Below, piece by piece: positions 1,731 through 26,349 of a stretch of 28,542 bases of DNA. The notes below the pieces were generated by a model. It was given only the letters and a program-made list of their open reading frames with translations, did not search any database and was not told the origin of the DNA. The stretch lies in the NCBI GenBank assembly GCA_012646845.1, contig GCA_012646845.1_4707.3; one strand, given 5' to 3'. This DNA is from a phage. A program made the translations under genes and the position numbers. Positions within the stretch are counted from its first letter, which is position 1; each line of letters begins with the position of its first letter.

Positions 1731-1933
1731 CTGAACACACGAGAGACGTAATGGGTGATGGCGTCACCCATCGCTTCCTTGCTTGAGGCGAGGAAGTTAT
1801 TAGGTTACGTGCCTGCCTGATTTTATCAGGTGGGCGATGTGTGAAGTTACGCTTCAACATTATCATTGCCGAAGGTAAACTTCGTGCATCACGTTCCAAC
1901 GTAACATGGGAACGTATCGAACTGGAGGTATAC

Positions 1934-4900
1934 ATGGTAGATAAAACCCGTGTTGAGGGTGATGATAATTGGGATAACTGGGATGATGACTTCTCCCTGG
2001 ATCTCGATTTTAACGAACCCAAAGACGATCGTAAACCGATAACCCGCTTTGCGGTAGGAGCGGTTAAAGGTGCTGCTGAGGATCTTACTTCCTACGAAAG
2101 AATGAAGGAGATCGCCAGAAACGCATTGCCTAAGGGCTACAGCGACGGTATGGATCTTATCGATTCCGCCGTCGGATCCACGAAGGAACTATACAATGAA
2201 GCCGTTCGTGACGTTCTTCCTAAGGTCCAAAGCTCAAAACGGTTAGCCGCACAACTGACCAAGAAATACCGTGCGAGCATGCCCGATTTCTCGAAGAAAA
2301 TTCTTGAGCAATGGGAGCGAGAAGCCAAGGAAGAAGACGAACGTAAACAAGCTGAAGAAACCCTTCGTCAGCGCATGGCGAACGCGGGGGACGATGAGAT
2401 CGCCCGCAAGGTTGCCGAGGCATTAGGCGAATCAGCAAACCAAAGCGCGGATCAGTTTGCTGAACAGCAAGCGAAAGAAAGTATCCGTGACGATATCGCT
2501 GACAAACGGTACGCTGTAACCAACAAGCAAATGAGTGCGATGCAAGAAGGCGTCGCCAAGATGGTTGGTTTCAACAACGAATTTGCTGCGCGCTATATGC
2601 GTAAAAGCCTGGAACTGAAATATCGTTCCTTAGCGATACAACGCGCAAGTTTCGACCAGCATAAAAAGTTAGCCGAAGTCTATATCGGTTTATTACAAAA
2701 CATCCAGAAGAATACGGCTTTACCTGATGCGGCTAAAGCAAAAATGTCGGAAGAATTCCGTCGTAGTGCATACCAACGTTTCTTTGGTAATGCGTTAGAT
2801 GCGATGGGTTCTTTCGAGAACCGTTTCTTTGCCGATGTTAAGAAGAACCTCGCCACCAACGCATTAGGTGCTTTAAAAGGCGTCGTGTCTGGCGCAAACG
2901 ATGCGTTATACGGTTTAAACGAAGCACGTGACTCGATGTCCATGATGGACGGGATGGGGTCAGAAGGCGATATTAAGGAAATGCAAGGAAAGATGTTGGG
3001 TCAGTTCATTGGCTCAACTGTCGCGCCGTGGATGGCTAATAAAGGCAGGATGGCGTTACGCGATTTAGCAAAACGTCACCCCAATGCTAAATTCGCTAGC
3101 GCATTAAAAGCCGTGGATCAAGGTGGTGAGGCTGCCGCTTACACGACGCGTAATCTCGGTAAACTGCTCCAGGAAGATATTCGTAAGAACGAATTCAATC
3201 TTAGCGATCCATTTTACAAGCAATTGTTACGCGGCGCAGGGCGTTGGGCGTTCAACATGGACAGTGGACGTAACTTCCGTGTGATGAACGACACCGCTGA
3301 AACACTGGCAGAGCAAACATCTTTCGACGGTTTAACTTACCGCAGTATCAATGAAGTTATTCCTGGTTTTCTTGCACGCATTCTGAAAAGCAGTGAAGGT
3401 ATCCGCACAGGAAACAGCGATCCTGACTACGAGGTCTATGACGGCATCAGCGGGCAATTCGTGTCTCAGCGCACGCGCGAGCAAAGCGTCAACGACACGC
3501 TGTTTAACAAACGTTCATTTGGTTATTACGCCAGCCGTTTCAACGAGGTTATCTCGGTCATCGATCCTGATAAGCAATTATCGGAAAAAGCCAGGAAGGC
3601 ACTGGCCAAGCAGTTGGCACGAGATAGCGACGCGAACATCGCATTCGACCCGGCTCGTTTTACGGATGAAAGCAACTTCGATCGTAGCATTGATCGTGAC
3701 GCTATTAAGGAACTTTCCACGTACTTTCGTGACCGTTACGGTATTCGTGATGATGTCAACGATAAGGGCGAACGCCATCAGGTCATTGGAAACCGCGGGC
3801 AATATTACACGGAACGTAACCGAGCCGATCTTCGTTACGGTAATCTGAAATCTTTACAACCGGATATCCAGCGTAACCTTAACCTGCTGAAACGTACTGG
3901 TGATGTCCAATATCTGGAACGGATCGGGATTGTAACGAGAAATAGCGACGGGAGCTACTCGGTTAATCACGATCGATATTTCTCTGAAATTGATCAATAC
4001 ATCGACAGACCAGAGTACGCTGACCGCGGCGATGTCAATACACGATTAACTGCTCAGGAAACAAGAGCACTGGCGCTGGGTTATCGTGACGCAAAACCAT
4101 CAGCTGGTGACGTCCAAAATACGGGTCTGCCGAACATCGATCGTAAGGCTGCTGGAACAGTAACCATTGATGAAAACATCGGCTACGATAAATGGTGGAA
4201 CGACGCAGGTGTTATCACCACATCGCTTGAAGAACAGAATCGAGCGTGGCAAGAGCTTTATCTCGAGGCGTTGTCCGAAGCATCCGAACAACGTGTTGAA
4301 ATGCTTGCGTTGCTGAAAGCCATTTCTGAGAAAGACTGGTCTAATAACGTTTCGCTGGATGGCGAAGACGTACCTGAAGGTGCAGCGCCCATTTCATTTA
4401 TCGATCGCACCAAACAAAAGCTCGGCACACGCAACCTCTTTAAAGGCGGTCGTAATCTCCTCTGGAAAGGAATTAAAAATACCGCACGGTTGGGTGTTAA
4501 AGGTGCACGCTGGGGTGCAGAACGTACACTAGGTAGTTTGGTAAATTCCGGCAGACGTATTATCGATTTCAACCGTTTTGTGTTCGGCGCATTATCCAAG
4601 GTTGATCAGGTTCCGTTTGACATTTACGTTAAAGGGGAATCCCAACCACGCATATTGGCTGCCAAACTTCGTCAGGGGTTATACTTCGACGAAGCGACAG
4701 GAAAAGCCGTAAAACGAATGAAGGATATCAAAGGCCCACTCGTTGATGCGGATGGAAACATCGTAATCAGCAACGAGGATATCGAGAAAGGGTTGGTCAC
4801 TCGCGCTGGTCGCGCCTTTGAGAATTCAGGACTTAAAGCGTGGGCGCATGAGGGTCTTAATGGAATCACGACGGTATTAAGTCTGCCACGGATGTTAAAA

Positions 4901-10844: not shown

Positions 10845-11912
10845 TTAACCTAATGTCACTGTCGGTAAATCAGGATAAAGTTTCTTCAAGCCAGCCATTG
10901 TGGTGGTAGTTGTATAATTCTTACCCATCACAGCAAGAGAGGCATATTTCCTACTGCGGGAGAAAAGAGAATAGAACCCACTGGATGTTTCCATCCACAT
11001 TGTGAGGAGTTCTGCATCGTTACCGTGATAGTTCGTTTTACCCCAGCCGGGTTTAAACGCATCAGCAAAATCAATTAAACGCGATGCTTCAGCGTCGTAT
11101 TCTTTAAGGGTAATGTACGATGGGATACGGTAGTTACGAAACAACAACGTAATGAGTTCAGGGACAACACTGCGGGCACGTTCAGCCGTAATGAGTTCGG
11201 TGATAACAGCAGCCGTACGGAAATCGCCGTTGAGACCAACGCTACTTAACGATTCCGCTAAGGTGGTTGCCATCGCTACTTTATCCTCCGCTGACCCAGA
11301 GTCATACAGACTACGCACATCGATGTAGTTGCCTGCTAATGCGGCTTGACGAATCAACGATGTGACAACTGTCCGGTTCGTCTTATAGTCGTTGTAACTA
11401 AATTCGGTTCGCGTTTTCCCTTGATCGTCGAGATACCGATCGACAATCGTTGATAGTTTATAATACTCATCGCCCGACATCAGACTATCGAGAAGCTTAA
11501 CGTTTCCATCTTTATCAATAAGCTTCCCTAACGCGCCATTGGATTGCTGGTTAATGGTACTGTAAATCTGGTCTTTTACTTGCGATAGGATGTTATCGGT
11601 CGACGATATATTCAAGCCTGTAACATCTTTGATCTTATTCATCAATGCGTTTTCATTCAGGGAGATTTTGCCGCCGCTGATATCGATGAAAGAGTTAAGA
11701 TCGCTTATGGAAATCAGGTTTCCGGTTAACGCCGATAATGTACTATTGATACTGTTCGTAATACTGCTACGAAAACTGGTTAACGCATCCGCCGCCGAAA
11801 CAGCGGTACCGCTAACCGCTTTAAGGAGCGTATCACGCCCTGTCGAAAAATCGCTGGTGATGGTTTTGATCTTGGACGTATCTATACTCGGCAGTTTGTC
11901 GTAAAGACTCAT
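10845..11912 (-). CDS. Hypothetical protein (355 aa), Ser/Thr-rich N-terminal half
   Basis: ORF track extends to 11963. I prefer the ATG at 11910-11912 (MSLYDK...), which has an AGGAGG SD about 5 nt upstream and avoids the upstream hairpin. Confidence 0.7.
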   Translation of the reverse strand: MSLYDKLPSIDTSKIKTITSDFSTGRDTLLKAVSGTAVSAADALTSFRSSITNSINSTLSALTGNLISISDLNSFIDISGGKISLNENALMNKIKDVTGLNISSTDNILSQVKDQIYSTINQQSNGALGKLIDKDGNVKLLDSLMSGDEYYKLSTIVDRYLDDQGKTRTEFSYNDYKTNRTVVTSLIRQAALAGNYIDVRSLYDSGSAEDKVAMATTLAESLSSVGLNGDFRTAAVITELITAERARSVVPELITLLFRNYRIPSYITLKEYDAEASRLIDFADAFKPGWGKTNYHGNDAELLTMWMETSSGFYSLFSRSRKYASLAVMGKNYTTTTTMAGLKKLYPDLPTVTLG

Positions 11913-11923
11913 CACGTCCTCCT

Positions 11924-11977
11924 GAAAAAGAAAAAAGAAATACGGCATAAAGCCTACCCACACAATGGTGGGTAGGC
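11924..11977 (-). terminator. Intrinsic terminator/attenuator between two minus-strand genes
   Basis: 10-bp perfect stem GCCTACCCAC / GTGGGTAGGC (11952-11977) with 6-nt loop, followed on the minus strand by a U-rich tract (plus-strand A-run at 11924-11940). Confidence 0.5.
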
Positions 11978-11994
11978 TAAGATCAACATCGATG

Positions 11995-12507
11995 TTAAAC
12001 TTCTTCGTTTTCTGAACCTAATGATTCAGCATCTGGATCGTCAACAGGAATTGTTGCATCAAAATACCGTTTCGTGTGCGTGGTTGTATATCCTACGCTA
12101 TCTGTGATGGAAATCGTAAACGTGACTTCTCTCGCACGGATTAAGCGTAGTTTATTCATGAAGTTACGGAACGGCATCGATCCCCGATTCAACTCCTTAA
12201 TGACGTTTCCTCGAATACTGGAAATATCTTTATTCGTCTTATCGGGATGCCGTTTCTTCACATCACGCATATGTCGGGTAATATACGAATTGAGCTGATT
12301 TGCGCCGATCCCTCTCTCCGTATAAATCTGCAACAGGAACTCCGTAAGGAAATCCTGTCTACCCGTAGGCGTCCAGAAATTGTTACCGTGATTGTAGTTA
12401 GTCGCTCGTCCTCGATTACTTTGAGGATTTTCATCATCGTTTTCGTCACAACGCTTAAGCGGATTAATGCGTGCTCGGAAAGAGACTTCATTATATTTAT
12501 TTGTCAT
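11995..12507 (-). CDS. Hypothetical basic protein (170 aa)
   Basis: ORF track extends to 12552. The internal ATG at 12505-12507 (MTNKYNEV...) overlaps the upstream gene's TGA stop as ATGA, indicating translational coupling. Confidence 0.6.
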   Translation of the reverse strand: MTNKYNEVSFRARINPLKRCDENDDENPQSNRGRATNYNHGNNFWTPTGRQDFLTEFLLQIYTERGIGANQLNSYITRHMRDVKKRHPDKTNKDISSIRGNVIKELNRGSMPFRNFMNKLRLIRAREVTFTISITDSVGYTTTHTKRYFDATIPVDDPDAESLGSENEEV

Positions 12508-13782: not shown

Positions 13783-14473
13783 AATAACTGAACCATTTTA
13801 TCCCAAAGAACCGCATGAACATCACGGGTGCGTTAGAAAGTTCGATTGCTTCGTAAAGTTTGTCGTAAGCCAGATCGGAATCAGGGATGGTTTCGCTGAT
13901 TCGTCTGGCGACAACCAACACGTTACAAATCGGATTGTCTTCTAACAGCATCTGATTGGGGAGATGCCAGCGTTTGAAATCGTAAAAGAACATTGCGTTA
14001 TATGTCTTACGGATTTCTGATGGATGCAGTGTGGCCGGATGACGGTAAATAATCTCGACGCTATCTTGCGCACCGAGGTATTGCTGAATACCTTCTTTTA
14101 ATGCTGTCGCTGCATCTCCCACAAATTCAAACGGGTACGTGTTCACGTGAACCGAAAAATCCGGCGTAGCAATCCCCGTTAAGCGGTCTTTCATGTAATC
14201 CGCGACTACATAACACAGCCGCCACATCAACTCCGTCGGGATACATTTATCGAGAATGGTCTCGTCGATATTTGCCATCGCGTCCTTAAACTCTTCGTAA
14301 GTATAAGTAACGCCCGCCTGCTTCTCCGGCTCCAGGTTATAGGGTCGGTAATGCCATTTCTTCCCCCACTTTCTGATAGCCTCCGGATCCAACGTTGTTG
14401 CTACCGCCATTTCGATATCAAGCAATGCTTCGAGTTCTACGTACACCGTCACCAATGCTGCACTTCCAGTCAT
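13685..14473 (-). CDS. Hypothetical protein (262 aa)
   Basis: ATG at 14471-14473 overlaps the upstream gene's TAA stop by 1 nt (TAATG coupling). Last gene of a six-gene minus-strand block. Confidence 0.7.
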   Translation of the reverse strand: MTGSAALVTVYVELEALLDIEMAVATTLDPEAIRKWGKKWHYRPYNLEPEKQAGVTYTYEEFKDAMANIDETILDKCIPTELMWRLCYVVADYMKDRLTGIATPDFSVHVNTYPFEFVGDAATALKEGIQQYLGAQDSVEIIYRHPATLHPSEIRKTYNAMFFYDFKRWHLPNQMLLEDNPICNVLVVARRISETIPDSDLAYDKLYEAIELSNAPVMFMRFFGIKWFSYFIPPRVTPPKTDDLQPSSETPPHEPTPSVEPF

Positions 14474-15177
14474 TATTGCTCTCCAGCTTCACCGGTTAAC
14501 ATCTGCATATCGGGAGACGTTTTAATTTTCTTCTCGTACTCTTTTGTTTGTTTGAATACCAATTCACCGATTTCTTCCAATTCTTCAACGGTGACGGTAT
14601 GCAAATAAAGCAGCGGAATAATCCAGGTATTCGCACGAAGCATGTCCTGAATATCGTCAACGGTGGGTAACTCCGTAAAGAACTGTTCGTCTACCGCAAA
14701 TAAATCCCGTGCGATACCATCCACCAGTTTATGATCGCTTTCATGGATCCATGCAAAACTTCCAGCAAGATGATCGATAAGCATATCGATGTCATCGACC
14801 GTTGAGAACACTGTACGGCGAACATGCGTTGTGAGGTCCATCGTAAAACCCATTAACGAAGGGGTTTCCTCAGAACGGAGTTCACGCCAAAGACGGAGCA
14901 TGTTTTCGGGGATAAACAAATCATGGATGAACGTTACGCTAAATTTCGTAATCCAATCACGAATTGTCGCACCTCTGGAATACTGTTGTGGTGGGGAATA
15001 CAAATACACCCAACGTTTCGTAAACGCGATAACTTCCTTTCGCATCGTCGCATCTAAAACAAGCACGTAACGATCGGAAGCAAGCTCTTCTAACAAAAGC
15101 TCGAACGCTGTATCGCTCTCTGGGGAGAACGATCGTTTTATTTCTGCGATACGTCGTGATAGCCGACTACGTAACAT
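14473..15177 (-). CDS. Hypothetical protein (234 aa)
   Basis: ATG at 15175-15177 lies 2 nt downstream of the upstream gene's stop. No recognisable motif. Confidence 0.7.
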   Translation of the reverse strand: MLRSRLSRRIAEIKRSFSPESDTAFELLLEELASDRYVLVLDATMRKEVIAFTKRWVYLYSPPQQYSRGATIRDWITKFSVTFIHDLFIPENMLRLWRELRSEETPSLMGFTMDLTTHVRRTVFSTVDDIDMLIDHLAGSFAWIHESDHKLVDGIARDLFAVDEQFFTELPTVDDIQDMLRANTWIIPLLYLHTVTVEELEEIGELVFKQTKEYEKKIKTSPDMQMLTGEAGEQ

Positions 15178-15179
15178 AA

Positions 15180-15854
15180 TTAGCCCTCATCAAGGTTATT
15201 CTGGAGATGCATTGCGGTGAGAATAACACCAACTGCCGAAACCGATTTTGCCTTGCTGTCTTCGGGTAGCTGTTCCAAGCTTACGGTACCTGTTTCTAAC
15301 AGCATGCGGTTCATCGCGTTGAACTTCTTATCATCGCCACCACGAGCCTGCATTAACTCTCGGTTCACGTTTGGCATCGATCGTCCTAACGTTGCTTGCA
15401 TTTCCGGTTGACTCCAAGTGGAACCTTTACTATCACCTGTCGGCTGATTGGTGAGCTGGTCCTTGGTGTTGTTGTTTTTCGGAATCGATATTTTAGCACT
15501 CAGCGTTTCGGCTTGTCGGCGGTTTGGAATCAGGTACAATCTGGTTGGGCGATCACGAAGCACCAATTGTCCTGTTTTCTGATCGGTGAGATAAACGCGT
15601 TGGAAGAAAGGGAAACCGTATTTCTTGCCGACTTCCAGTGCGCGTTTTATCGTCACCTCGTTTTTGTTCATATTGGGTACCCAGATGGGTAGAATCTCTT
15701 TCTTATCCCGACATAAACGCATATACGCATCAAACGTCTCATCATCGATTTCAGCAAAACGTTTTTTGTAAATAGCGTAGGTCGGACTCGATCCCCCCAC
15801 CAAGTCTTTGATATACCCAAGAATGAATTTTTCTGCTGCAGCGCGGTTGGACAT
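15180..15854 (-). CDS. Hypothetical protein (224 aa)
   Basis: ATG at 15852-15854 with AGGAGA SD that overlaps the stop of the upstream SLOG-like gene. Confidence 0.7.
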   Translation of the reverse strand: MSNRAAAEKFILGYIKDLVGGSSPTYAIYKKRFAEIDDETFDAYMRLCRDKKEILPIWVPNMNKNEVTIKRALEVGKKYGFPFFQRVYLTDQKTGQLVLRDRPTRLYLIPNRRQAETLSAKISIPKNNNTKDQLTNQPTGDSKGSTWSQPEMQATLGRSMPNVNRELMQARGGDDKKFNAMNRMLLETGTVSLEQLPEDSKAKSVSAVGVILTAMHLQNNLDEG

Positions 15855-15863
15855 AAACGTCTC

Positions 15864-16190
15864 CTATTGTCGTGTCTGTTGCGGAAATACCCGAAACACC
15901 TGGACGATGATGTTCTTGTCCTCGCGGTTGGCGATGTCAATCATGTGTTTTGTTCCAGGACTTTTGAAATCCCAGAACGCAACTAGATGCGTAATGACAT
16001 CGCCCATCCACTCGTTGCGTCTGAATCCAGCACCTTTACGATAAGGGCCATCCCAATCGGCAGGAAACGTGGTGTATTTAAACCCGTAATCCTTCGCATA
16101 GCGGCGCACATGCAAATCAGCACCTGAACGCGCACCGCCAGCAATGAGATGAACTTTGTCGTGAGGGAGGTTATGTAACATCTGGTTCAT
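15864..16190 (-). CDS. SLOG/DUF2493-like small Rossmann-fold protein (DprA/LOG-related)
   Basis: Motifs HLIAGGARSGADLHVRRYAKDYG ... FPADWDGPYRKGAGFRRNEWM ... LVAFWDFKSPGTKHMIDIA match the DUF2493/SLOG pattern as I recall it. Track start is TTG 16205; I prefer ATG 16188-16190 (MNQMLHNL...). Confidence 0.6.
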   Translation of the reverse strand: MNQMLHNLPHDKVHLIAGGARSGADLHVRRYAKDYGFKYTTFPADWDGPYRKGAGFRRNEWMGDVITHLVAFWDFKSPGTKHMIDIANREDKNIIVQVFRVFPQQTRQ

Positions 16191-16258
16191 ACGCTTTTCG
16201 AACAAGGGATAATCATCCCAGTAGCGTGATCCTGATACCCCTACACGATAGGGTTCGC

Positions 16259-16579
16259 TTATCTTCCACCGCGCAATGACTTTACGTTGCGTGCAATAAA
16301 GGGCGCAACGTAATCACGGAAATTATGGATCCATCCTTTAATGGGTTGGTTGTCTAGTAAGCACTCTCGCACCGAGAACGTACTTACTTCTAGTACACCG
16401 AACTGCAATCGCCAATAACGATTGATTTCGGCTTGGGCGTGTTCTAAGGTCATGTACTCAGGGACACGAGCCAGCAGATCGTGTTTAAATTGCTCGGCAA
16501 TCGCTGGCTGATGCGATGCAATTGTCTGTGCGATAACATCAACCAGTTCGTGCGCGTGCTTGATAGCAGGTGCGGTCAT
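16259..16579 (-). CDS. Hypothetical protein (106 aa)
   Basis: ORF whose ATG (16577-16579) lies inside the last codons of the upstream gene (about 13-nt overlap). Confidence 0.55.
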   Translation of the reverse strand: MTAPAIKHAHELVDVIAQTIASHQPAIAEQFKHDLLARVPEYMTLEHAQAEINRYWRLQFGVLEVSTFSVRECLLDNQPIKGWIHNFRDYVAPFIARNVKSLRGGR

Positions 16580-16591
16580 TTATTCAGCCTT

Positions 16592-18082
16592 TTATTTTTT
16601 GCTTGGACGATTTAATGCAGGTACCGGGTTCTTTGGTTGCTTTGTCTTTTCATCCATCCAGTACGGGAAGTACTCACCGGTACGCATACGCAATAAGTCC
16701 ATTGTGGACAAGAACGGTAGCGGGTTAGGATCATCCAGATATGTCCAGTAACCGCGTGTGTTTAACAACACATCCCAATCGAACCCTTTTGCTTTAAGAT
16801 CGTCGTACAGTTCCTGCGGGGTGCAATACAATTGCGGATTTTCGTAAACCTCTTGACGCCAGAGATTATGCATCTGACATAGCTCCGACGTAATTTCCAG
16901 AGCACGCTGTAAATACTCATCTTCTTCGCAGAGAGAACGAATGGTCGTGCGCTGCAACGCAACATCCGGATAAATATCCAAATACACCGTTGAAGCACCA
17001 TCAGCTGACTTACCACCTGACGCATGCATACCCCAACCACGCATCCAATCTTTATCACGCAGGTAGTGGTATTCCGTTAATGATGGTTTAACCCCTTCGC
17101 TCTGACTAACCACAATCGGGAACGGTAAGCCAGTGGGTCCGTTTTTAGCACGCATGTTGAAGACTTGGATCATCTGTAGATCGGTATCACCAATAAGGTT
17201 ATCACCAGGCCCACGCGGATAAAGAACGCGTTTATCGGCGTTCTGAAGGATCGTCAGTTTATCGATTTTCCAGAGGTTGTTCGTATAAAACGTGAAGCGT
17301 TCCGGGACGTTCTTAAACTTCTCATCGCCCTTAAACCCTTTCAGTTTTCGTACCGGCTGCTGTCCCGGCATACCACCAACGTTTACGCCATCGCCGAGGT
17401 GGGCGGTCATGGTAATGTAGATACCTGCTGACGCTGTGAGTACCGGCATCTGTGATAGAATCTGGCTTTTCGCTGCTGCCGAACGCATCGCTTCAGCATT
17501 CAGTTTTGCACCACCCGCGGTTTCTTTATCAAACAGTGCGTCAACGGCATCGATTGGTAATCCAGAGAAACTGTCGATGAGTACAACGGTTGGTAACCAC
17601 CAGGTATAGTTCTCGCCATGTTTATTAATGAACGGAACGGCTTTGCGTTGGGATTTATCTTTGACCTTGTCGTCACGGAATTTCTTAATCGCATCAAACC
17701 AAATGTTACCACTCATCTGAACAGCATCGGTGATAAACACACGTTCTTCTTCGAAAAGATCGACACCCGCGATATTAGACATGTTCATCGCAAGCGTTAA
17801 GATACGCGTTGTCGTTAACGACATTTCTGTATCGTAAACGCTACTGTTGCTGTTCGCGTAACGATCGATAACACGTAACAAGCGAAACATTATGAACGTG
17901 GTTTTGTTCATGTTGCCGCGAGCGCCTGCGCCCTCAACAAGCATCATACCGCCGTTACAAATGCTTTCACCATGTTTACCGACATAGTACCGACCGCCAG
18001 ATGTGGGAATATCCATTAAGCAGCCAATGTTGAGATTAAAACGCATCTCTTCACCGGGAGAAAGGTACTTATTAAGATTCAT
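16592..18082 (-). CDS. Divergent RecA/UvsX-like protein (496 aa) with non-canonical P-loop; assignment tentative
   Basis: Motif-level resemblance to the RecA core: hhhhDS Walker-B-like VVLIDSFSGLP, followed by ...AEAMRSAAAKSQILSQ... and ITMTAHLGDG (compare RecA VVVDSVAAL...MRKLAGNL...IFINQIR). The expected Walker A region reads EGAGARGNMNKTTF, which is not G-x4-GK[ST]. ATG at 18082 with AAGGAG upstream. Confidence 0.45.
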   Translation of the reverse strand: MNLNKYLSPGEEMRFNLNIGCLMDIPTSGGRYYVGKHGESICNGGMMLVEGAGARGNMNKTTFIMFRLLRVIDRYANSNSSVYDTEMSLTTTRILTLAMNMSNIAGVDLFEEERVFITDAVQMSGNIWFDAIKKFRDDKVKDKSQRKAVPFINKHGENYTWWLPTVVLIDSFSGLPIDAVDALFDKETAGGAKLNAEAMRSAAAKSQILSQMPVLTASAGIYITMTAHLGDGVNVGGMPGQQPVRKLKGFKGDEKFKNVPERFTFYTNNLWKIDKLTILQNADKRVLYPRGPGDNLIGDTDLQMIQVFNMRAKNGPTGLPFPIVVSQSEGVKPSLTEYHYLRDKDWMRGWGMHASGGKSADGASTVYLDIYPDVALQRTTIRSLCEEDEYLQRALEITSELCQMHNLWRQEVYENPQLYCTPQELYDDLKAKGFDWDVLLNTRGYWTYLDDPNPLPFLSTMDLLRMRTGEYFPYWMDEKTKQPKNPVPALNRPSKK

Positions 18083-18180
18083 TGGGTAAAAACTCCTTCG
18101 ATTCTTCGACTAATTCTTAGTGTTCAGAGAATAACTATTTTTAGTTAAGACTGACAACCACTATTTCCACGAGGACCATC
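18083..18180. promoter_or_regulatory. Divergent intergenic region (probable promoters for both flanking genes)
   Basis: 98-bp AT-rich non-coding gap between divergent starts at 18082 (-) and 18181 (+). Promoter consensus cannot be assigned by eye. Confidence 0.3.
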
Positions 18181-19023
18181 ATGCATAAATTTACCATTCC
18201 TGAAGACCCGATTACACTGCAGACCCTTTGGGATTCACATCGTGCTCTATCAATGGAAGGCTTTGCACAAGACTTCGCTTCACTTACCGCGGTAACGAAT
18301 CTTCGTAGTATGTTTACTAACGGTAAGAAGTTCGTTACCGACTGGCTTAAGAAACGTGATGTGACGGTTTATCCTAAAGTCTTCGATGACCTCGATACCA
18401 TCTTTAGCAACAACGCTTACAGCGATCTCATTGGGTATCGTGCTTTTATTCCGAATGGTTTAAATGCACCGATGTCAGATTATGTTGTTGCTCTAACCCA
18501 GAGCCTGGATAGCGTAATTGGCACCATCCTACCCGATTTAGATAAGTTGACCGTAACGTGCGCTAAAGCCGTCAATGACGTCAACTTCCGTCGTAGTAGT
18601 GGTATGGCTCAAACACTACCTAAAAACGACCCAGAGAACGTTTTAGAGACGTTACGTGCGATGTTCAAACGTGGGACGGTAACACAGACCACTGTAGGTC
18701 GTGCATATAAGAACGAAGACGATATCCGTCAGATCGGAAAAGATCTGGATACTTCCCGCATCCGTGCGCTCGACGTTAATCCTAAAGACGTGAAGAAAGC
18801 AATCGAACGTTTCATGGAAGTGGCTGACCGCTTAACCGAAATCCTGGTTCAAGACTACAACGAAGGTGCGGTGAGCAACGCGATGATTCGCGATATTAGT
18901 GACGCTATCTACCAAACAGCCAAGCAGGCTGAACTGTATGCGTTTCTCGTGAACGCTTTGGCTGAGGCGATCACTGCATATAACGACACTTGGGACGCTG
19001 TTAAAAAGAACGCGAAAAAATAA
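18181..19023 (+). CDS. Hypothetical protein (280 aa)
   Basis: ATG at 18181 with GAGGA SD 5 nt upstream. Followed by a bidirectional hairpin. Confidence 0.75.
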   Translation: MHKFTIPEDPITLQTLWDSHRALSMEGFAQDFASLTAVTNLRSMFTNGKKFVTDWLKKRDVTVYPKVFDDLDTIFSNNAYSDLIGYRAFIPNGLNAPMSDYVVALTQSLDSVIGTILPDLDKLTVTCAKAVNDVNFRRSSGMAQTLPKNDPENVLETLRAMFKRGTVTQTTVGRAYKNEDDIRQIGKDLDTSRIRALDVNPKDVKKAIERFMEVADRLTEILVQDYNEGAVSNAMIRDISDAIYQTAKQAELYAFLVNALAEAITAYNDTWDAVKKNAKK

Positions 19024-19032
19024 CATAATAAC

Positions 19033-19067
19033 CCACCCTACTACCCTGTTAAGGGCGGTAGGGTGGG
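19033..19067. terminator. Bidirectional two-tier hairpin terminator between convergent genes
   Basis: CCCACCCTAC-ta-CCCT-gtta-AGGG-cg-GTAGGGTGGG, flanked by T-rich sequence on both strands. Confidence 0.55.
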
Positions 19068-19074
19068 GTAAGGT

Positions 19075-19506
19075 TTATTTGCCGTATAGTTGTACCACTC
19101 GTTGTGTCGTAGGAACGCAGACTCTTACCAGAAGCTTTTTAATCTCCTGACGAATCGTTGCCTTATCATCATAATAAAGCCATGGTGGAACGCGTTGCAT
19201 TATGCACTGCACGGCTTCATCGTAGTTTGTCGTCCCATTAAGTAACGTCTCACTATCCAGATCTTTCCATGCAGTAATACCAAGTCGCGCAGCAAACATC
19301 AACGCTGAAACCGACTCAGCTATCTCCAATCGCTCATTCATATCCGCAAGACCTTTTAGCATGACGTAATTATCGTCATGCTGGTGCAGGGTACCAAACA
19401 AACTTCCGAAGAGAAGTATACGTTTAGCTTTTGCGGTTAAGAGGAACGACAGGAGAGCGTGTTTCAACGGTTGTTTCTCACGTTCTACCTGTTCGACCAT
19501 CACCAT
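19075..19506 (-). CDS. Hypothetical protein (143 aa)
   Basis: ATG at 19504-19506 lies 3 nt downstream of the RNase H gene stop (coupled). Confidence 0.65.
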   Translation of the reverse strand: MVMVEQVEREKQPLKHALLSFLLTAKAKRILLFGSLFGTLHQHDDNYVMLKGLADMNERLEIAESVSALMFAARLGITAWKDLDSETLLNGTTNYDEAVQCIMQRVPPWLYYDDKATIRQEIKKLLVRVCVPTTQRVVQLYGK

Positions 19507-19509
19507 TGA

Positions 19510-21036
19510 TTACTCCAACACATAACGTGGGTTACTGTATATGTTAGCCCATATACCAACGTCGTCCCCCGACTCAATAATCACGGCGAAACGAAACGCA
19601 ACATCGGACTCGCGATATGTTACCGCGTACGCTTTCGTTTCCGGCGATGCTAAATAGCTCAAGTTCAGACGTTGAGGCAGGTCTAACCCCAAGGACATGG
19701 TACAAGACGTAACACCCTGCTTATCGGGGGTCAGTCTGTAATTCACATCCACTTTCAGGCTTTTCGTAACCTGCGTAATCGCACTATGCACTTTGGTAAC
19801 CGTTTTGCCTTTCTTATCCTTTTCTGTTTCGAAAAGAACGTCGGTGATTTCGGTTACGACCAGACGCGGTGTGGATTCGCGGTTAGCGTCAAGCCATTCA
19901 TCCAGTAACGTCTTTAAGAAGTTCAAGGAATCAATCGCACGCCAAGCAAGGTTAGGCGGATTGCATGCTTCCATTAAAATGGCTGTGTTCGATCCACCTA
20001 GCGGAAGATGCACGCTCTTACCGAGGCCTGTCGGACGCATCGTAAGATCGCACTCACCCTCAAGAATATCGCGATGATGTTGACGATGATGAAGGTTATC
20101 CGTGTATGCAATATACACTGACTCCGTTGTCCCATGCTCTAATACCCGAGATGCATGCGTACGCATAATCTCAATAGCATCATCCGGCTTGCTTAAATAG
20201 ATAACACTATACGCGCTATCACTAATCCTTTTCCCTAACTCAAGACGTCCCTTGTTGTCTTTATCGGTGTTACCACCGAAATAGATGTAGCGGCCATCTT
20301 TCGCACGCTCTTGCTGCTGATTGGTGGTAAAGTAGCAGCGTGAGAACGTAAAGAACGGACTTATTTCCGGTTCGGGACTCCAATACCCCTTAGCCGGAAG
20401 TTCGCGACGTATTTGGGTTCTTACAGCCCAGTCCTGGTTTTGTGATAGATATGTTCCACGCGTTGCCAACATATCCGCACGTTCGTTACCAACATTGCCC
20501 TCATGTCCAGGAACGTAGCGCAGCGAAATATCGATAGCGTCGCGCTTCGCATCCCTTATCGCACTATCGAGTTTCCGCCACCGTTCCGCATTCATTAACG
20601 GTTTATTGTCGGATTTAACCCAGTTGTTCTCTCGCCAGTTAGCAAGATGGTTGGTGGCACCTACAACAACATATTGGCTGTCCGACAACAGCTGGATCCG
20701 TTTTGCCCCCTTTGCTTTTCCAAGTTCAATCGCACGTATTGCAGCATCCAACTCAGCCTGATTGTTCGTTACGTTGAAACCCAAAGCCTCTAACTCATCC
20801 ACGTATTCCTTGGGTTCGACCAGCACGGCGTCTTTAGGAAAGTTGAGTTTAGGGTCAACATAACCGTATTGTGTTGGTTTGGGCTTTCCACTTTTTGAAG
20901 GTTCCAAGGTGCCTTTTATTTCTTTCACCATATCGTAGGTGTAGCCATGCACGCCATAGCCACCGTACCCACTCGATGTTGGACGGGATCCTCCATCACA
21001 GTAGAAAACGGCACCAAGCTCAGTATTTCCTGCCAT
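19510..21036 (-). CDS. RNase HI domain protein fused to a ~310-aa C-terminal domain of unknown function
   Basis: N-terminal ~190 aa carry RNase HI signatures: AVFYCDGGS...GYGGYG (compare FTDGSC..GPGGYG), TNNQAELDAAIRAIE, LLSDSQYVV, NW.ENNW, VPGHEGNVGNERADMLA (compare VKGHAGHPENERCDELA). Start is ambiguous between ATG 21048 and ATG 21036; the latter has GAGG about 6 nt upstream. Confidence 0.8.
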   Translation of the reverse strand: MAGNTELGAVFYCDGGSRPTSSGYGGYGVHGYTYDMVKEIKGTLEPSKSGKPKPTQYGYVDPKLNFPKDAVLVEPKEYVDELEALGFNVTNNQAELDAAIRAIELGKAKGAKRIQLLSDSQYVVVGATNHLANWRENNWVKSDNKPLMNAERWRKLDSAIRDAKRDAIDISLRYVPGHEGNVGNERADMLATRGTYLSQNQDWAVRTQIRRELPAKGYWSPEPEISPFFTFSRCYFTTNQQQERAKDGRYIYFGGNTDKDNKGRLELGKRISDSAYSVIYLSKPDDAIEIMRTHASRVLEHGTTESVYIAYTDNLHHRQHHRDILEGECDLTMRPTGLGKSVHLPLGGSNTAILMEACNPPNLAWRAIDSLNFLKTLLDEWLDANRESTPRLVVTEITDVLFETEKDKKGKTVTKVHSAITQVTKSLKVDVNYRLTPDKQGVTSCTMSLGLDLPQRLNLSYLASPETKAYAVTYRESDVAFRFAVIIESGDDVGIWANIYSNPRYVLE

Positions 21037-21086
21037 TGTAAACCTCATTAATCATTGTCCGTATGATAGCCCAAAGTTGTACGGTA

Positions 21087-21638
21087 TTACCGATTACCGT
21101 CAGTTGACGTTGGTTGATTGCGATCGATTTTCATTGACCGTAATTTTCCACCATTAGTTACACACTGATTGCGCTGTTCGACGGAGGCCAGACTGTTACA
21201 GACATAATAAGTATCGATAAAACGCTCAACGCGTTCTTGAAACTTCCTCCCGGCAACTTGTTCTTTTTCAAAAGTTCGTAATGCACGATCGACCTCACCT
21301 TGGAGAATCCGGTTCTGTTCAACCATACTGTCGATTAAACGGCCTCGCACTTCGTTCGATGTGTAGAGTTGATGAATCAGTTCTCGGTTGGTGTCTCGCG
21401 CATAGCGCAATGTTGTATTTTCCTGACGTAAACTATTCGCCTCAGCCATCAAGGTAAAGATTTTTTCGCCAGCAAATAACGTCACGATACCCAACACGAT
21501 GAAAAAACCCGTAATCAAGAATATCGAGGACTGTCGAGCTCCATCTCGACGATAGCGTGTGGGTGGTCGCTTACTTCGCCGAAACAACTCGCGAAGAAAA
21601 GGGAAAAGCCAGGGCAACGCCTTGAGTGTAGTAAACAT
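21087..21638 (-). CDS. Membrane protein with N-terminal TM helix and long predicted coiled coil (i-spanin-like architecture)
   Basis: ORF track extends to 21929 and would overlap the divergent gene. I prefer the ATG at 21636-21638 (MFTTLKALPW...) with AAGGA SD. Hydrophobic segment IFLITGFFIVLGIVTLFAG is followed by heptad-like charged helical sequence. Confidence 0.5.
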   Translation of the reverse strand: MFTTLKALPWLFPFLRELFRRSKRPPTRYRRDGARQSSIFLITGFFIVLGIVTLFAGEKIFTLMAEANSLRQENTTLRYARDTNRELIHQLYTSNEVRGRLIDSMVEQNRILQGEVDRALRTFEKEQVAGRKFQERVERFIDTYYVCNSLASVEQRNQCVTNGGKLRSMKIDRNQPTSTDGNR

Positions 21639-21692
21639 GCGTGTGTCCTTGATAGTATGAAATTTCCAATACAACTTAACCGAGGACGTCGA
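21639..21692. promoter_or_regulatory. Divergent intergenic region
   Basis: 54-bp gap between divergent starts at 21638 (-) and 21693 (+), containing both ribosome-binding sites. Confidence 0.3.
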
Positions 21693-23033
21693 ATGATTAG
21701 TATTTTTGGTTTTTATACGTACAAAGGGTACGCTAATAACCACCCAAAAACCACGGCGAAATTCGGTGAGTTCAGCCAGCATAGTGCTACGTTCAGTCGC
21801 GAGATCGGCATCTATACCAACACGGCGTACGCACGTACGACCCTGCTGGTATTGAATGCAGAAAACGAAGCTGGTGAAGCACAAACGCTGGATGACAACA
21901 CCGCAAATCAGATTCTTCAGGTTGGTCAATGGTTGCTGGAAAAAGCCTCATCGGGCGAAATCCAGGATGACAGAGACCAGGTTATCAGCTACCTAAAAGA
22001 CGACTTCACAACGTATTTGGATTCTATCGACATCCCGACACCCACCACCGATGGGAACGTCTATCTACCGGCGTGGATCAGTTTCAAGATAACCGCCACG
22101 GGTGATGTTGTCAAGATATGGCTGTCTGATAGCGTATTCCAAAGTCAATATCCAAAATACGAATACGAAGTCGTTCCTCCCGTTCCTAAGGACCAGTTAG
22201 ACACCTTCTTCGAAGATCTGGCAACGTTGAAGAAACTGGTTGACAGTCGAAGCAGCGAGAAACTGACCGAAGAAATCAACGAGGTGCGCGACCAATTCCC
22301 AGACACACAATTGTGGACGAAAACCTATAAAGCGTACGATTACACCGACGATTCGAAGTACATTGATACCGATTGGACGGTGATTATCTACGGTGCAGCA
22401 GGTAACAATATTGATAATATCAAGGAGTTCCTGCAAAACTGGATTCTTAGCAATAGCACGCATGGACGCCCAGACTGGGAAATCGTTCTGCCGGATCTTT
22501 TTATTCCGACGGAACACATCTTCATCCCGATCTGGAACCGCCACAGCGCTCCGGAGATGACCAATCAGGCACGTATCTATAGTCCCATCTTCGATGATTC
22601 GTTGATGGATACCTACCTGAAAAACTTTGCTGATGGTTACGGTGAAACCGCCGAAGTCCGTAAATCGCTTCAAGCGGTGCCGACGCTGTGGCGTTCGATC
22701 GGTTTCTTAAGTGTTGGTAACTCACGTAACCGTGATGGTAAACTTAAGTTCTACGATCGTTGGCCGCAATACGCACTCATCAGCACAACCAGCATTGATA
22801 TTAACCGTATCGATGACGCGACACGCGAATTTATCACCTTCACTTACGAAATGCTGAAACTGGCGGAATCGCTCACCGAAGACGATCCGGTACCGTTGGG
22901 TTATAGTCGTGTTACGCGTGGTAGCAATAACTTCTTAGCGAAAAGCCACAACGATGTTCAGTATCTCTTCTTAACAAAAGAAGCGTTCCTGAAGAAAATG
23001 CCGGATGAAGCCGACACACCTGTTGGAGGTTGA
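21693..23033 (+). CDS. Hypothetical protein (446 aa)
   Basis: Track start is ATG 21657. I prefer ATG 21693 (MISIFGFY...), which has GAGGA 6 nt upstream. No recognisable motif. Confidence 0.75.
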   Translation: MISIFGFYTYKGYANNHPKTTAKFGEFSQHSATFSREIGIYTNTAYARTTLLVLNAENEAGEAQTLDDNTANQILQVGQWLLEKASSGEIQDDRDQVISYLKDDFTTYLDSIDIPTPTTDGNVYLPAWISFKITATGDVVKIWLSDSVFQSQYPKYEYEVVPPVPKDQLDTFFEDLATLKKLVDSRSSEKLTEEINEVRDQFPDTQLWTKTYKAYDYTDDSKYIDTDWTVIIYGAAGNNIDNIKEFLQNWILSNSTHGRPDWEIVLPDLFIPTEHIFIPIWNRHSAPEMTNQARIYSPIFDDSLMDTYLKNFADGYGETAEVRKSLQAVPTLWRSIGFLSVGNSRNRDGKLKFYDRWPQYALISTTSIDINRIDDATREFITFTYEMLKLAESLTEDDPVPLGYSRVTRGSNNFLAKSHNDVQYLFLTKEAFLKKMPDEADTPVGG

Positions 23034-23668: not shown

Positions 23669-23700
23669 CCCTCCTCCTTCCCTCACGGGTTGGAGGAGGG
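23669..23700. terminator. Two-tier hairpin (conserved core, copy 2)
   Basis: CCCTCCTCC-TT-CCC-TCAC-GGG-TT-GGAGGAGGG, 7 nt after the TAA stop at 23662. Confidence 0.5.
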
Positions 23701-23714
23701 TTATGCTGTCAAGC

Positions 23715-23763
23715 AAAAAAAAAAAATGATAGTCACGGACCCTCCAATGAAGGAGGGTCGTGA
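23715..23763 (-). terminator. Intrinsic terminator for the convergent minus-strand gene
   Basis: Hairpin GTCACGGACCCTCC-aatgaa-GGAGGGTCGTGAC (23733-23763), followed on the minus strand by a 12-nt U tract (plus-strand A12 at 23715-23726). Confidence 0.65.
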
Positions 23764-25542: not shown

Positions 25543-26199
25543 TTAGCTTGCAGCTTCTTCATTTGTATCAGGTTTGCTTCCCCCTAACAAACCGTCAAAC
25601 AGACCCGTATGTTTCAGGTAGAAGAGAGCGATAGCGCCCATTGCTGCTGCGCTCGTCGCCGTTAACGCAACCCCGGCACGATACTGCCATTTACGGTCGG
25701 GCTTTTGATCAAGAGCCATACGACGCATGTATTCAGCCTCTGCCTCATTCCGATGAATTTCGGATTCAGCCAAGCGGGCTAAGGTATCGCGGTCAAGGTT
25801 ATCATAACGTACGTTCATGGTGGTTTCCTCTTGTTTGGAAGTTGATTGCTTAGTGGATTCTTGGTCAATAGTCGTTTCAGATGGTTCAAACGGCTGGTTG
25901 TTCATTTTCTGATCTTTATTGGTCATGATAGACTCCTTCGATTTTTGAGACGAAATTGATTTAAACCATCGTGGATGGCGGTATTCAGTTTTACATGTGC
26001 AGTTAAGTTTCTCGTGCAGGAAAGCGTAAAAACGTTTTGCGCCTACACGTAAGGCTTTCAGCATTACCCATCCACGAGCACTCAAACGGTGTAGCTGTTG
26101 CGGTATGTCTAGTTTCCTAGCCAAGCGAAAGTATCTTTCAATCACTTCGATAGGAAACCATTGTTGTTCCACATCGGTGAGACTGAAAGTCTTATCCAT
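25543..26199 (-). CDS. Hypothetical protein (218 aa) with basic N-terminal region and C-terminal TM helix; may be two genes
   Basis: ATG at 26197-26199. An internal in-frame ATG at 25924-25926 (MTNKDQK...) has a strong AAGGAG SD, so a shorter 128-aa product is possible. C-terminal hydrophobic segment VALTATSAAAMGAIALFYL. Confidence 0.55.
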   Translation of the reverse strand: MDKTFSLTDVEQQWFPIEVIERYFRLARKLDIPQQLHRLSARGWVMLKALRVGAKRFYAFLHEKLNCTCKTEYRHPRWFKSISSQKSKESIMTNKDQKMNNQPFEPSETTIDQESTKQSTSKQEETTMNVRYDNLDRDTLARLAESEIHRNEAEAEYMRRMALDQKPDRKWQYRAGVALTATSAAAMGAIALFYLKHTGLFDGLLGGSKPDTNEEAAS

Positions 26200-26349
26200 G
26201 AATGAAATCTCGCTGGCTTACTTCACTTAAGTAATATAGCCGTGAAAAATGTTGGATTAAGTTAAATACTGCAACCGTAACTGATTTTATGGGCTTTTAG
26301 CCTAAACCAATCATCTTCGGAATCATCATCTTTGAAACAGGAACCTATC

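Follow-up and report, generated by a model that had tools for sequence, protein, structure and literature searches.

The stretch of DNA analysed here (hereafter, the window) is a phage contig of 28,542 nucleotides (nt; contig GCA_012646845.1_4707.3 of GenBank assembly GCA_012646845.1), and the subject of this analysis is one of its minus-strand open reading frames (ORFs), which runs from ATG to stop and encodes 496 amino acids (aa). An inspection of the letters without database searches (the sequence-only reading) had described this ORF as a RecA/UvsX-like protein with a non-canonical P-loop, and thus as either an ATPase-inactive paralog or a recombinase with an unusual nucleotide-binding loop. 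Window positions 14000–22000 have 95.2% nt identity to Escherichia phage vB_EcoM_Goslar, a nucleus-forming jumbo phage, in which the counterpart of the ORF is HOV27_gp193 (NC_048170, 230169..231659). The two proteins are identical at 495 of 496 residues (99.8%), and the genes differ at 73 of 1491 nt; 72 of these differences are synonymous and one is non-synonymous (M304L), giving a non-synonymous-to-synonymous ratio (pN/pS) of 0.004. The gene is under strong purifying selection. This ratio, together with the homologs found at E ≤ 1e-3 (806 in a large protein database and 858 representative clusters in an exhaustive hidden Markov model [HMM] search), shows that this reading frame did not arise by chance. 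On the evidence set out below, it very probably encodes an ATP-dependent UvsX/RecA-family recombinase of a Goslar-like jumbo phage of the Chimalliviridae, orthologous to Goslar gp193 and phiKZ Nlp1. The features of the gene and its neighbours are listed in Table 1.

Table 1. Features of the recombinase gene and of annotated neighbouring genes, in window coordinates, with the basis of each assignment
Feature	Coordinates	Strand	Basis
UvsX/RecA-family recombinase gene (496 aa + stop)	16592..18082	-	ORF, Goslar gp193 identity, PHIKZ152 synteny, phrog_97, RecA structural match
Conserved N-terminal segment, residues 1–27	18002..18082	-	family consensus MSxxxxFxxAPxxRPxLNxGCLFDIPTG
Walker A/P-loop, G51-AGARGNMNK60-T61-T62	17897..17932	-	hhalign and hmmsearch to UvsX aGPSKxFKS
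Strand V82-YDTE86 with catalytic Glu (E86 = UvsX E92 = RecA E96)	17825..17839	-	hhalign to UvsX FYDSE, thence RecA FIDAE
Arg93 at adenine-stacking Tyr position (UvsX Y99, RecA Y103)	17804..17806	-	ungapped hhalign, 7 residues past catalytic Glu
Family-specific insertion before Walker B, residues 143–164, modelled beta-hairpin	17591..17656	-	spacing; DSSP strands 146–152, 158–162
Walker B strand, T165-VVLID170-S171-F-S173	17564..17590	-	hhalign (mact 0.01) to UvsX IVFIDSIGN, thence RecA VIVVDSVA
L1-position loop, residues 174–197	17492..17563	-	between Walker B and AAKSQ helix, as L1 in RecA
Strand I221-YITMTAH228 ending in gamma-phosphate sensor/allosteric switch His (= UvsX H195, RecA Q194)	17399..17422	-	motif order and inspection
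Extended basic L2-position loop, residues 229–261	17300..17398	-	after sensor residue, as L2 in RecA
R-x-K motif, M310-R311-A-K313-NGPTG (RecA K248/K250, UvsX K-x-R)	17129..17155	-	spacing and inspection
RecA C-terminal-domain-like region, residues 331–407	16862..17092	-	helix, hairpin, helix order
Clade-specific insertion (~15–19 aa), residues 347–365, inside the RecA C-terminal-domain-like region	16988..17044	-	family alignment
Conserved family-specific C-terminal extension, residues 408–496 (~90 aa)	16595..16861	-	family conservation
RNA polymerase beta subunit fragment, 224 aa	15180..15854	-	phrog_3233 E 1.2e-65
SLOG-family protein, 113 aa (Goslar gp195)	15864..16205	-	Pfam PF10686 YAcAr E 2.1e-8; phrog_289 E 9e-21
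RNase H-like protein, 512 aa	19510..21048	-	Pfam RNase_H E 1.9e-25; phrog_3265 E 5e-103

The protein aligned over its full length with PHIKZ152 of phage phiKZ (38% identity across 480 residues, E 1e-104), and the gene order around it is common to the window, Goslar (gp196–190), and phiKZ (PHIKZ149–155): an RNA polymerase beta fragment, two small ORFs, the recombinase gene, a plus-strand ORF, a small ORF, and an RNase H-like gene. The gene is therefore the syntenic orthologue of phiKZ gp152/Nlp1, a UvsX-like recombinase validated by genetics, and the orthologue of Goslar gp193. In tblastn searches with a coverage of at least 80% of the protein, 288 phage records contained homologs; among the matches listed, all were jumbo phages of 197–322 kilobases (kb), many were labelled 'putative UvsX', and the hosts included Pseudomonas, Erwinia, Salmonella, Vibrio, Serratia, Aeromonas, Klebsiella, Ralstonia, and others. 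A Pfam domain had been precomputed for none of the 120 homologs listed from the protein database. Judged by these searches, the family is discrete, and its sequences do not grade into those of RecA.

The identity of the protein was already known, because the literature names gp193 as UvsX and describes phiKZ Nlp1; the protein is the known Goslar UvsX, gp193. Specifically, gp193 was reported as a putative UvsX, and in 100% of infections its fusions associated with the phage nucleus (10.1101/2021.10.25.465362); phiKZ gp152, named Nlp1, was characterized as a homolog of UvsX/RecA and as a protein that the phage nucleus imports (10.1101/2024.03.27.586873). When nlp1 was deleted, phiKZ formed small plaques and its competitive index was 0.05, and in the presence of the nuclease NucC of the cyclic-oligonucleotide-based anti-phage signalling system (CBASS), replication of the phage DNA was abolished; Nlp1 supplied in trans restored the plaque size and rescued the sensitivity to NucC (10.1101/2025.11.23.690004). 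UvsX (gp150 in phage RAY) is also included in the Chimalliviridae core genome (PMC10299810). The database records of Goslar lag behind this literature: the product field of gp193 is 'hypothetical protein' in both RefSeq and GenBank, and no Pfam or NCBIfam model detects the family.

In terms of fold, the protein matched the PHROGs family phrog_97, 'UvsX-like recombinase', at E 2.4e-32, and the same profile matched PHIKZ152 (E 1.3e-55) and T4 UvsX (E 8.5e-105). An AlphaFold2 model, predicted from a 40-sequence alignment, had a predicted local distance difference test (pLDDT) score of 87.3 and a predicted template modelling (pTM) score of 0.88. When this model was compared with the PDB using Foldseek, ranks 1–9 were all RecA (prob 1.00, E ~1e-9), RAD51 and DMC1 were among the lower ranks, and ~295 residues aligned structurally to RecA. 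According to the predicted model and these matches, the protein has the RecA alpha/beta ATPase core fold. Furthermore, hhalign of the family against a UvsX alignment (E 3e-5, prob 73.5%) paired the P-loop and the catalytic strand, and a permissive run (mact 0.01) extended the pairing to Walker B. The global mode (-glob) of the same comparison gave a prob of 0.05%, and a phmmer search of the PDB with the single sequence returned chance matches only, such as caspase-1 and an antibody light chain. The RecA/UvsX-like fold proposed in the sequence-only reading is thus borne out by phrog_97, the AlphaFold2 model, Foldseek, and hhalign; the structure prediction placed RecA first and did not lead to a non-RecA fold. 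The profile checks were divided, with matches to phrog_97 and UvsX but none to the Pfam RecA family.

The sequence-only reading had placed the expected Walker A region at EGAGARGNMNKTTF, which corresponds to residues 50–63 of the translation, and had noted its failure to fit G-x4-GK[ST]. This is literally true. The loop, A54-R-G-N-M-N59-K60-T61, fails the strict pattern [AG]-x4-G-K-[ST], and the sole misfit is Asn59 at the Gly before the Lys; it is a single deviation from the textbook motif because the PROSITE form permits Ala at position -6, counted from the Lys. In the profile comparison, the family motif G-v-G-G-R-G-N-t-F-K-S-t pairs with a-G-P-S-K-s-F-K-S-n of T4 UvsX, and in the UvsX profile, GPSKSFKS aligns with GPESSGKT of RecA. 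The residue before the Walker Lys is Gly71 in RecA, Phe65 in T4 UvsX, and Asn59 in this protein. In the model, a strand (residues 49–54) is followed by a helix (residues 60–74), with K60 and T61 at the helix N-terminus.

For a residue census, 266 members were aligned to the HMM of the family; three of them were gapped at the P-loop Lys. The Walker Lys was present in 263 of 263 members, and the next position (T61) was Ser in 207 and Thr in 56, so that it was Ser or Thr in all 263. At position -6 (A54), Gly predominated (236), followed by Ala (24) and Ser (3). At position -1 (N59), Phe (156) and Tyr (62) were the most frequent, followed by Gly (27), Asn (8), His (4), Trp (2), and Ser (2). The 27 members with Gly at this position carry a fully canonical GxxxxGKS loop, the Goslar clade has Asn, and Gln is found in LAh10, Miami, and FishSpeaker, which are more divergent; phiKZ itself (SRPNNFKT) has Phe, unlike the protein in the window. 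Going by these aligned residues, position -1 is unconstrained in the chimallivirus UvsX family. T4 UvsX is an active enzyme for single-stranded-DNA-dependent ATP hydrolysis and strand exchange (PMC3016280), and since it has Phe at this position, a residue other than Gly there is compatible with activity. Nor does the strict Walker A pattern define the RecA/UvsX family, because T4 UvsX, an accepted member, also fails it. On this comparison, the 'non-canonical' P-loop is a family trait common to T4 UvsX and no sign of a dead enzyme. The description of the loop as unusual therefore holds only against the textbook motif; within the family it is an ordinary variant, shared with T4 UvsX. More generally, it cannot be concluded from a departure of the P-loop from the textbook pattern that the ATPase of a UvsX-type recombinase is dead, given T4 UvsX and the ~90% of the chimallivirus family that have a residue other than Gly, mostly Phe or Tyr. 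A literature search on the UvsX Walker A motif in jumbo phages and on the GPSKSFKS loop found no paper.

The rest of the ATP site was conserved to a similar degree. The catalytic Glu (E86) was retained in 261 of 263 members, the Walker B Asp (D170, equivalent to RecA D144) in 265 of 266, and the adjoining S171 in 261 of 266. The sensor position (residue 228) was His in 250 and Gln in 13 of 266, the same two residues that UvsX (H195) and RecA (Q194) have; Gln occurs, for example, in the divergent SPN3US, LAh10, Miami, and FishSpeaker. The UvsX segment 'avnHt' aligns with 'FINQ' of RecA, and the role of UvsX H195 as a sensor or switch has been described (PMC3016280); the equivalence of H228 to the UvsX residue was judged by motif order and inspection, with no significant alignment. 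R311 and K313 were each present in 265 of 266 members, and the 16 residues that separate K313 from the invariant E329-G330 equal the distance in RecA from K250 (VKNK) to the EG of LYGEGI. In RecA, K248 and K250 reach the ATP of the neighbouring protomer. All ATP-site residues were kept even in homologs with 22–30% identity. As far as residue conservation can tell, the ATP site is complete, consisting of the P-loop, Glu86, Asp170, His228, and, presumably in trans, Arg311/Lys313. A position at which the site departs from both UvsX and RecA is Arg93, which is near-invariant in the family (Arg in 246 of 266) and takes the place of Tyr99 of UvsX and Tyr103 of RecA, both of which stack on adenine (PMC3016280). 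The resulting motif map (K60, E86, R93, D170, H228, and R311/K313) provides targets for mutagenesis.

The by-eye assignments of Walker B (VVLIDSFSGLP, residues 166–176), of the helix that follows it (AEAMRSAAAKSQILSQ, residues 196–211), and of the TAH strand (ITMTAHLGDG, residues 223–232) were correct. A joint MAFFT alignment of the family with UvsX agreed at the P-loop and the YD[ST]E strand only. Its placement of Walker B on 'VPFINKH' was rejected, since N153 is not conserved, D170, S171, and S173 are invariant, and hhalign selects residues 165–171. With regard to the DNA-binding loops, pLDDT values below 50 were confined to residues 180–191 and 235–237, where RecA has its disordered loops L1 and L2. 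The L2-position loop contains the conserved residues G230, L247, K251, K257, and P260, and its pLDDT blocks were 55–56 over residues 231–250. The sequences of the two loops could not be aligned to L1 and L2 of RecA.

The protein is ~140–145 aa longer than the 352-aa chain of Escherichia coli RecA, which agrees with the difference of about 150 aa given in the sequence-only reading. The extra length comes from internal insertions, a longer basic L2 region, and the C-terminal module; the insertions were placed by secondary-structure order and spacing. E86 and D170 are separated by 84 residues, compared with 52 in T4 UvsX (E92 to Asp144 of VVVFIDS), and most of this difference is attributable to the insertion at residues 143–164, in which P150 and F151 are invariant. 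Residues 331–407, in which the order of helix, hairpin, and helix is that of the RecA C-terminal domain, agree with the ~295 residues that align to RecA. The C-terminal module (residues 408–496) had no structural match. N18 and G20 are invariant in the N-terminal segment, and the secondary structure assigned to the model by DSSP contained just one three-residue helix within residues 1–30; this segment is possibly a protomer–protomer contact. The insertion at residues 347–365 is carried by the Goslar clade, unlike phiKZ, and also by a second clade (P0088, P0090, P0101, and P0106), with the sequences …ASGGKSADGAST… and …NGNSAKGKPN…, respectively; the rest of the family lacks it.

When all six frames of the complete Goslar genome (237 kb) were searched with HMMs, the family profile matched gp193 alone, and the canonical UvsX profile had no match (best E 0.44). 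A second recombinase in the Goslar genome was therefore rejected. As Goslar has no other RecA/UvsX gene, gp193 is its sole candidate for a RecA-family recombinase and no degenerate duplicate of a canonical gene. Goslar also encodes recombination partners (RuvC, an SbcC-like protein, superfamily 2 [SF2] helicases, and an NAD ligase) and a DnaB-like helicase.

The recombinase shares its catalytic residues, insertions, and C-terminal extension with Goslar gp193 and phiKZ Nlp1, and by analogy with what has been published for these two proteins, it would be made in the cytoplasm and then selectively taken into the chimallin-bounded phage nucleus. The phiKZ import adaptor Imp2 was reported to be conserved in Pseudomonas phages only (10.1101/2024.03.27.586873), so the import route of this protein may differ from that in phiKZ. 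Once in the nucleus, it would most likely form ATP-dependent helical filaments on single-stranded phage DNA via its L1- and L2-position loops, and such filaments would perform homology search and strand exchange, by which the phage genome would be repaired through recombination and replicated in a recombination-dependent manner.

The better-characterized recombinases differ from this protein in several respects. Unlike T4 UvsX (PDB 3IO5), to which it has no significant pairwise or Pfam-level sequence similarity, it has Arg93 in place of Tyr99 and no long N-terminal helix in the model; it is also ~105 aa longer, owing to the inserted beta-hairpin, an L2 region of greater length, and a C-terminal module that is larger and of another kind, and no UvsY-type mediator was identified for it. 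Its identity to bacterial RecA (E. coli, 3CMU; Streptococcus pneumoniae, 8AMD) is 10–14%, with ~145 extra residues; where RecA has Gly71, its family has Asn, Phe, or Tyr, and where RecA has Tyr103, it has Arg. Whereas RecA has a LexA/SOS context, this protein does not, and its site of action would be the phage nucleus. RAD51, DMC1, and RadA, as well as the RAD51 paralogs, had structural scores below those of RecA; unlike RAD51, the protein has no N-terminal helix–hairpin–helix domain, and the arrangement of its C-terminal domain is RecA-like. Arg93, the lack of a long N-terminal helix in the model, and the C-terminal module are genuine differences from RecA and UvsX that the sequence-only reading had not mentioned.

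Several points weigh against an active UvsX/RecA-type recombinase. Only 8 of the 263 members share Asn59, and the adenine-stacking Tyr is replaced by Arg93, so altered nucleotide kinetics or specificity is possible. The model lacks the long N-terminal helix that RecA and UvsX use for filament contacts. At the profile level, neither Pfam (including RecA PF00154 and PF21134) nor NCBIfam gave a match for the protein, or any family for PHIKZ152, even at the permissive thresholds of E ≤ 10 and E ≤ 1, and the family profile ranked T4 UvsX second in the PDB with an E value (0.74) that is not significant alone. Beyond approximately residue 100, the equivalences with UvsX depend on the low-confidence extension of the hhalign pairing, motif order, and spacing. 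Lastly, a literature search yielded no assay of ATPase activity, DNA binding, or strand exchange for any chimallivirus UvsX, so that catalysis is inferred here.

Some of these same features could indicate that chimallivirus UvsX constitutes a mechanistically distinct branch of RecA, characterized by the R93 pocket together with the free -1 position, the absence of the N-terminal helix from the model, and the orphan C-terminal module. We consider this unlikely; in such a branch, the C-terminal module could license nuclear import or dock phage-specific mediators, and the altered pocket could shift the nucleotide preference or the hydrolysis rate and hence the filament dynamics. Whichever applies, three features are new beyond the known identity of the protein: the family-specific Arg93 at the position of the Tyr that stacks on adenine, the inserted beta-hairpin, and the C-terminal module without a structural match.

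It is very improbable that the protein is instead a Sak4/RadB-type enzyme for ATP-dependent single-strand annealing, which would bind and use ATP as a recombinase does but would lack true homology search and strand invasion. Such proteins are core-only (~220–240 aa), whereas this protein has a RecA C-terminal-domain-like region and long loops at the L1 and L2 positions, and the structures that it matches best are those of full-length RecA and UvsX.

An ATPase-inactive paralog would have kept the RecA fold and lost hydrolysis and would, as some RAD51 paralogs do, bind DNA in a structural or regulatory role; the fold and the textbook misfit of the P-loop agree with it, but we give it hardly any credence. 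The Walker Lys, the Ser/Thr after it, the catalytic Glu, the Walker B Asp, the sensor His/Gln, and the putative trans-acting Arg/Lys are retained in at least 98% of the 266 members, and a dead enzyme would not be expected to retain all of these ATPase residues. Active T4 UvsX has Phe at the very place of the misfit, and 27 members of the family have the canonical Gly. In addition, the genome has no second RecA/UvsX of which the protein could be a paralog, and the deletion phenotype of the phiKZ orthologue is of the recombinase type, resembling that of T4 uvsX mutants. Thus, neither half of the label 'ATPase-inactive paralog' found support. Equally remote is another motor with the RecA fold, such as a hexameric helicase or translocase of the DnaB, RadA/Sms, or KaiC-like type. 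The UvsX/RecA-family recombinase remains the preferred reading.

Among the neighbouring genes, the RNA polymerase beta fragment is one piece of the split multisubunit RNA polymerase typical of these phages, and it is kept at the same place in phiKZ as PHIKZ149, which is noted as 'structural head protein' in the phiKZ record. In the Goslar genome outside the window, two annotated group I introns (19269–19645 of locus L007 and 11817–12245 of locus L008) adjoin RNA polymerase beta-subunit genes, and one of them also adjoins an HNH endonuclease gene. The SLOG-family ORF lies two genes downstream of the recombinase, and its match to PF10686 YAcAr (YspA/cpYpsA-related) exceeds the curated cut-off. 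The SLOG superfamily includes DprA, a RecA loader. In phage RAY, a nuclear 'DprA gp153' was listed near 'UvsX gp150' (PMC10299810). Possible roles of the SLOG-family ORF are mediation of recombination or nucleotide sensing. The RNase H-like ORF occupies the syntenic position of phiKZ gp155 (Nlp2), which is likewise imported into the phage nucleus (10.1101/2024.03.27.586873). As the positions of both Nlp1 and Nlp2 are syntenic in the window, the genes of two known nuclear cargo proteins lie at most 3 kb apart.

The window also crosses the ends of the linear Goslar record. Window position 14000 corresponds to Goslar 227577, and the Goslar end at 237307 falls near window position 23730 (junction at ~23,670–23,730). 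Beyond this point, window 25546–26217 (minus strand) appears to correspond to Goslar 1875–2546 (minus strand), with equal length, the same strand, and a near-identical HMM score. From these coordinates, there seems to be either a permutation of the source record with respect to NC_048170 or a genome that is circularly permuted or terminally redundant.

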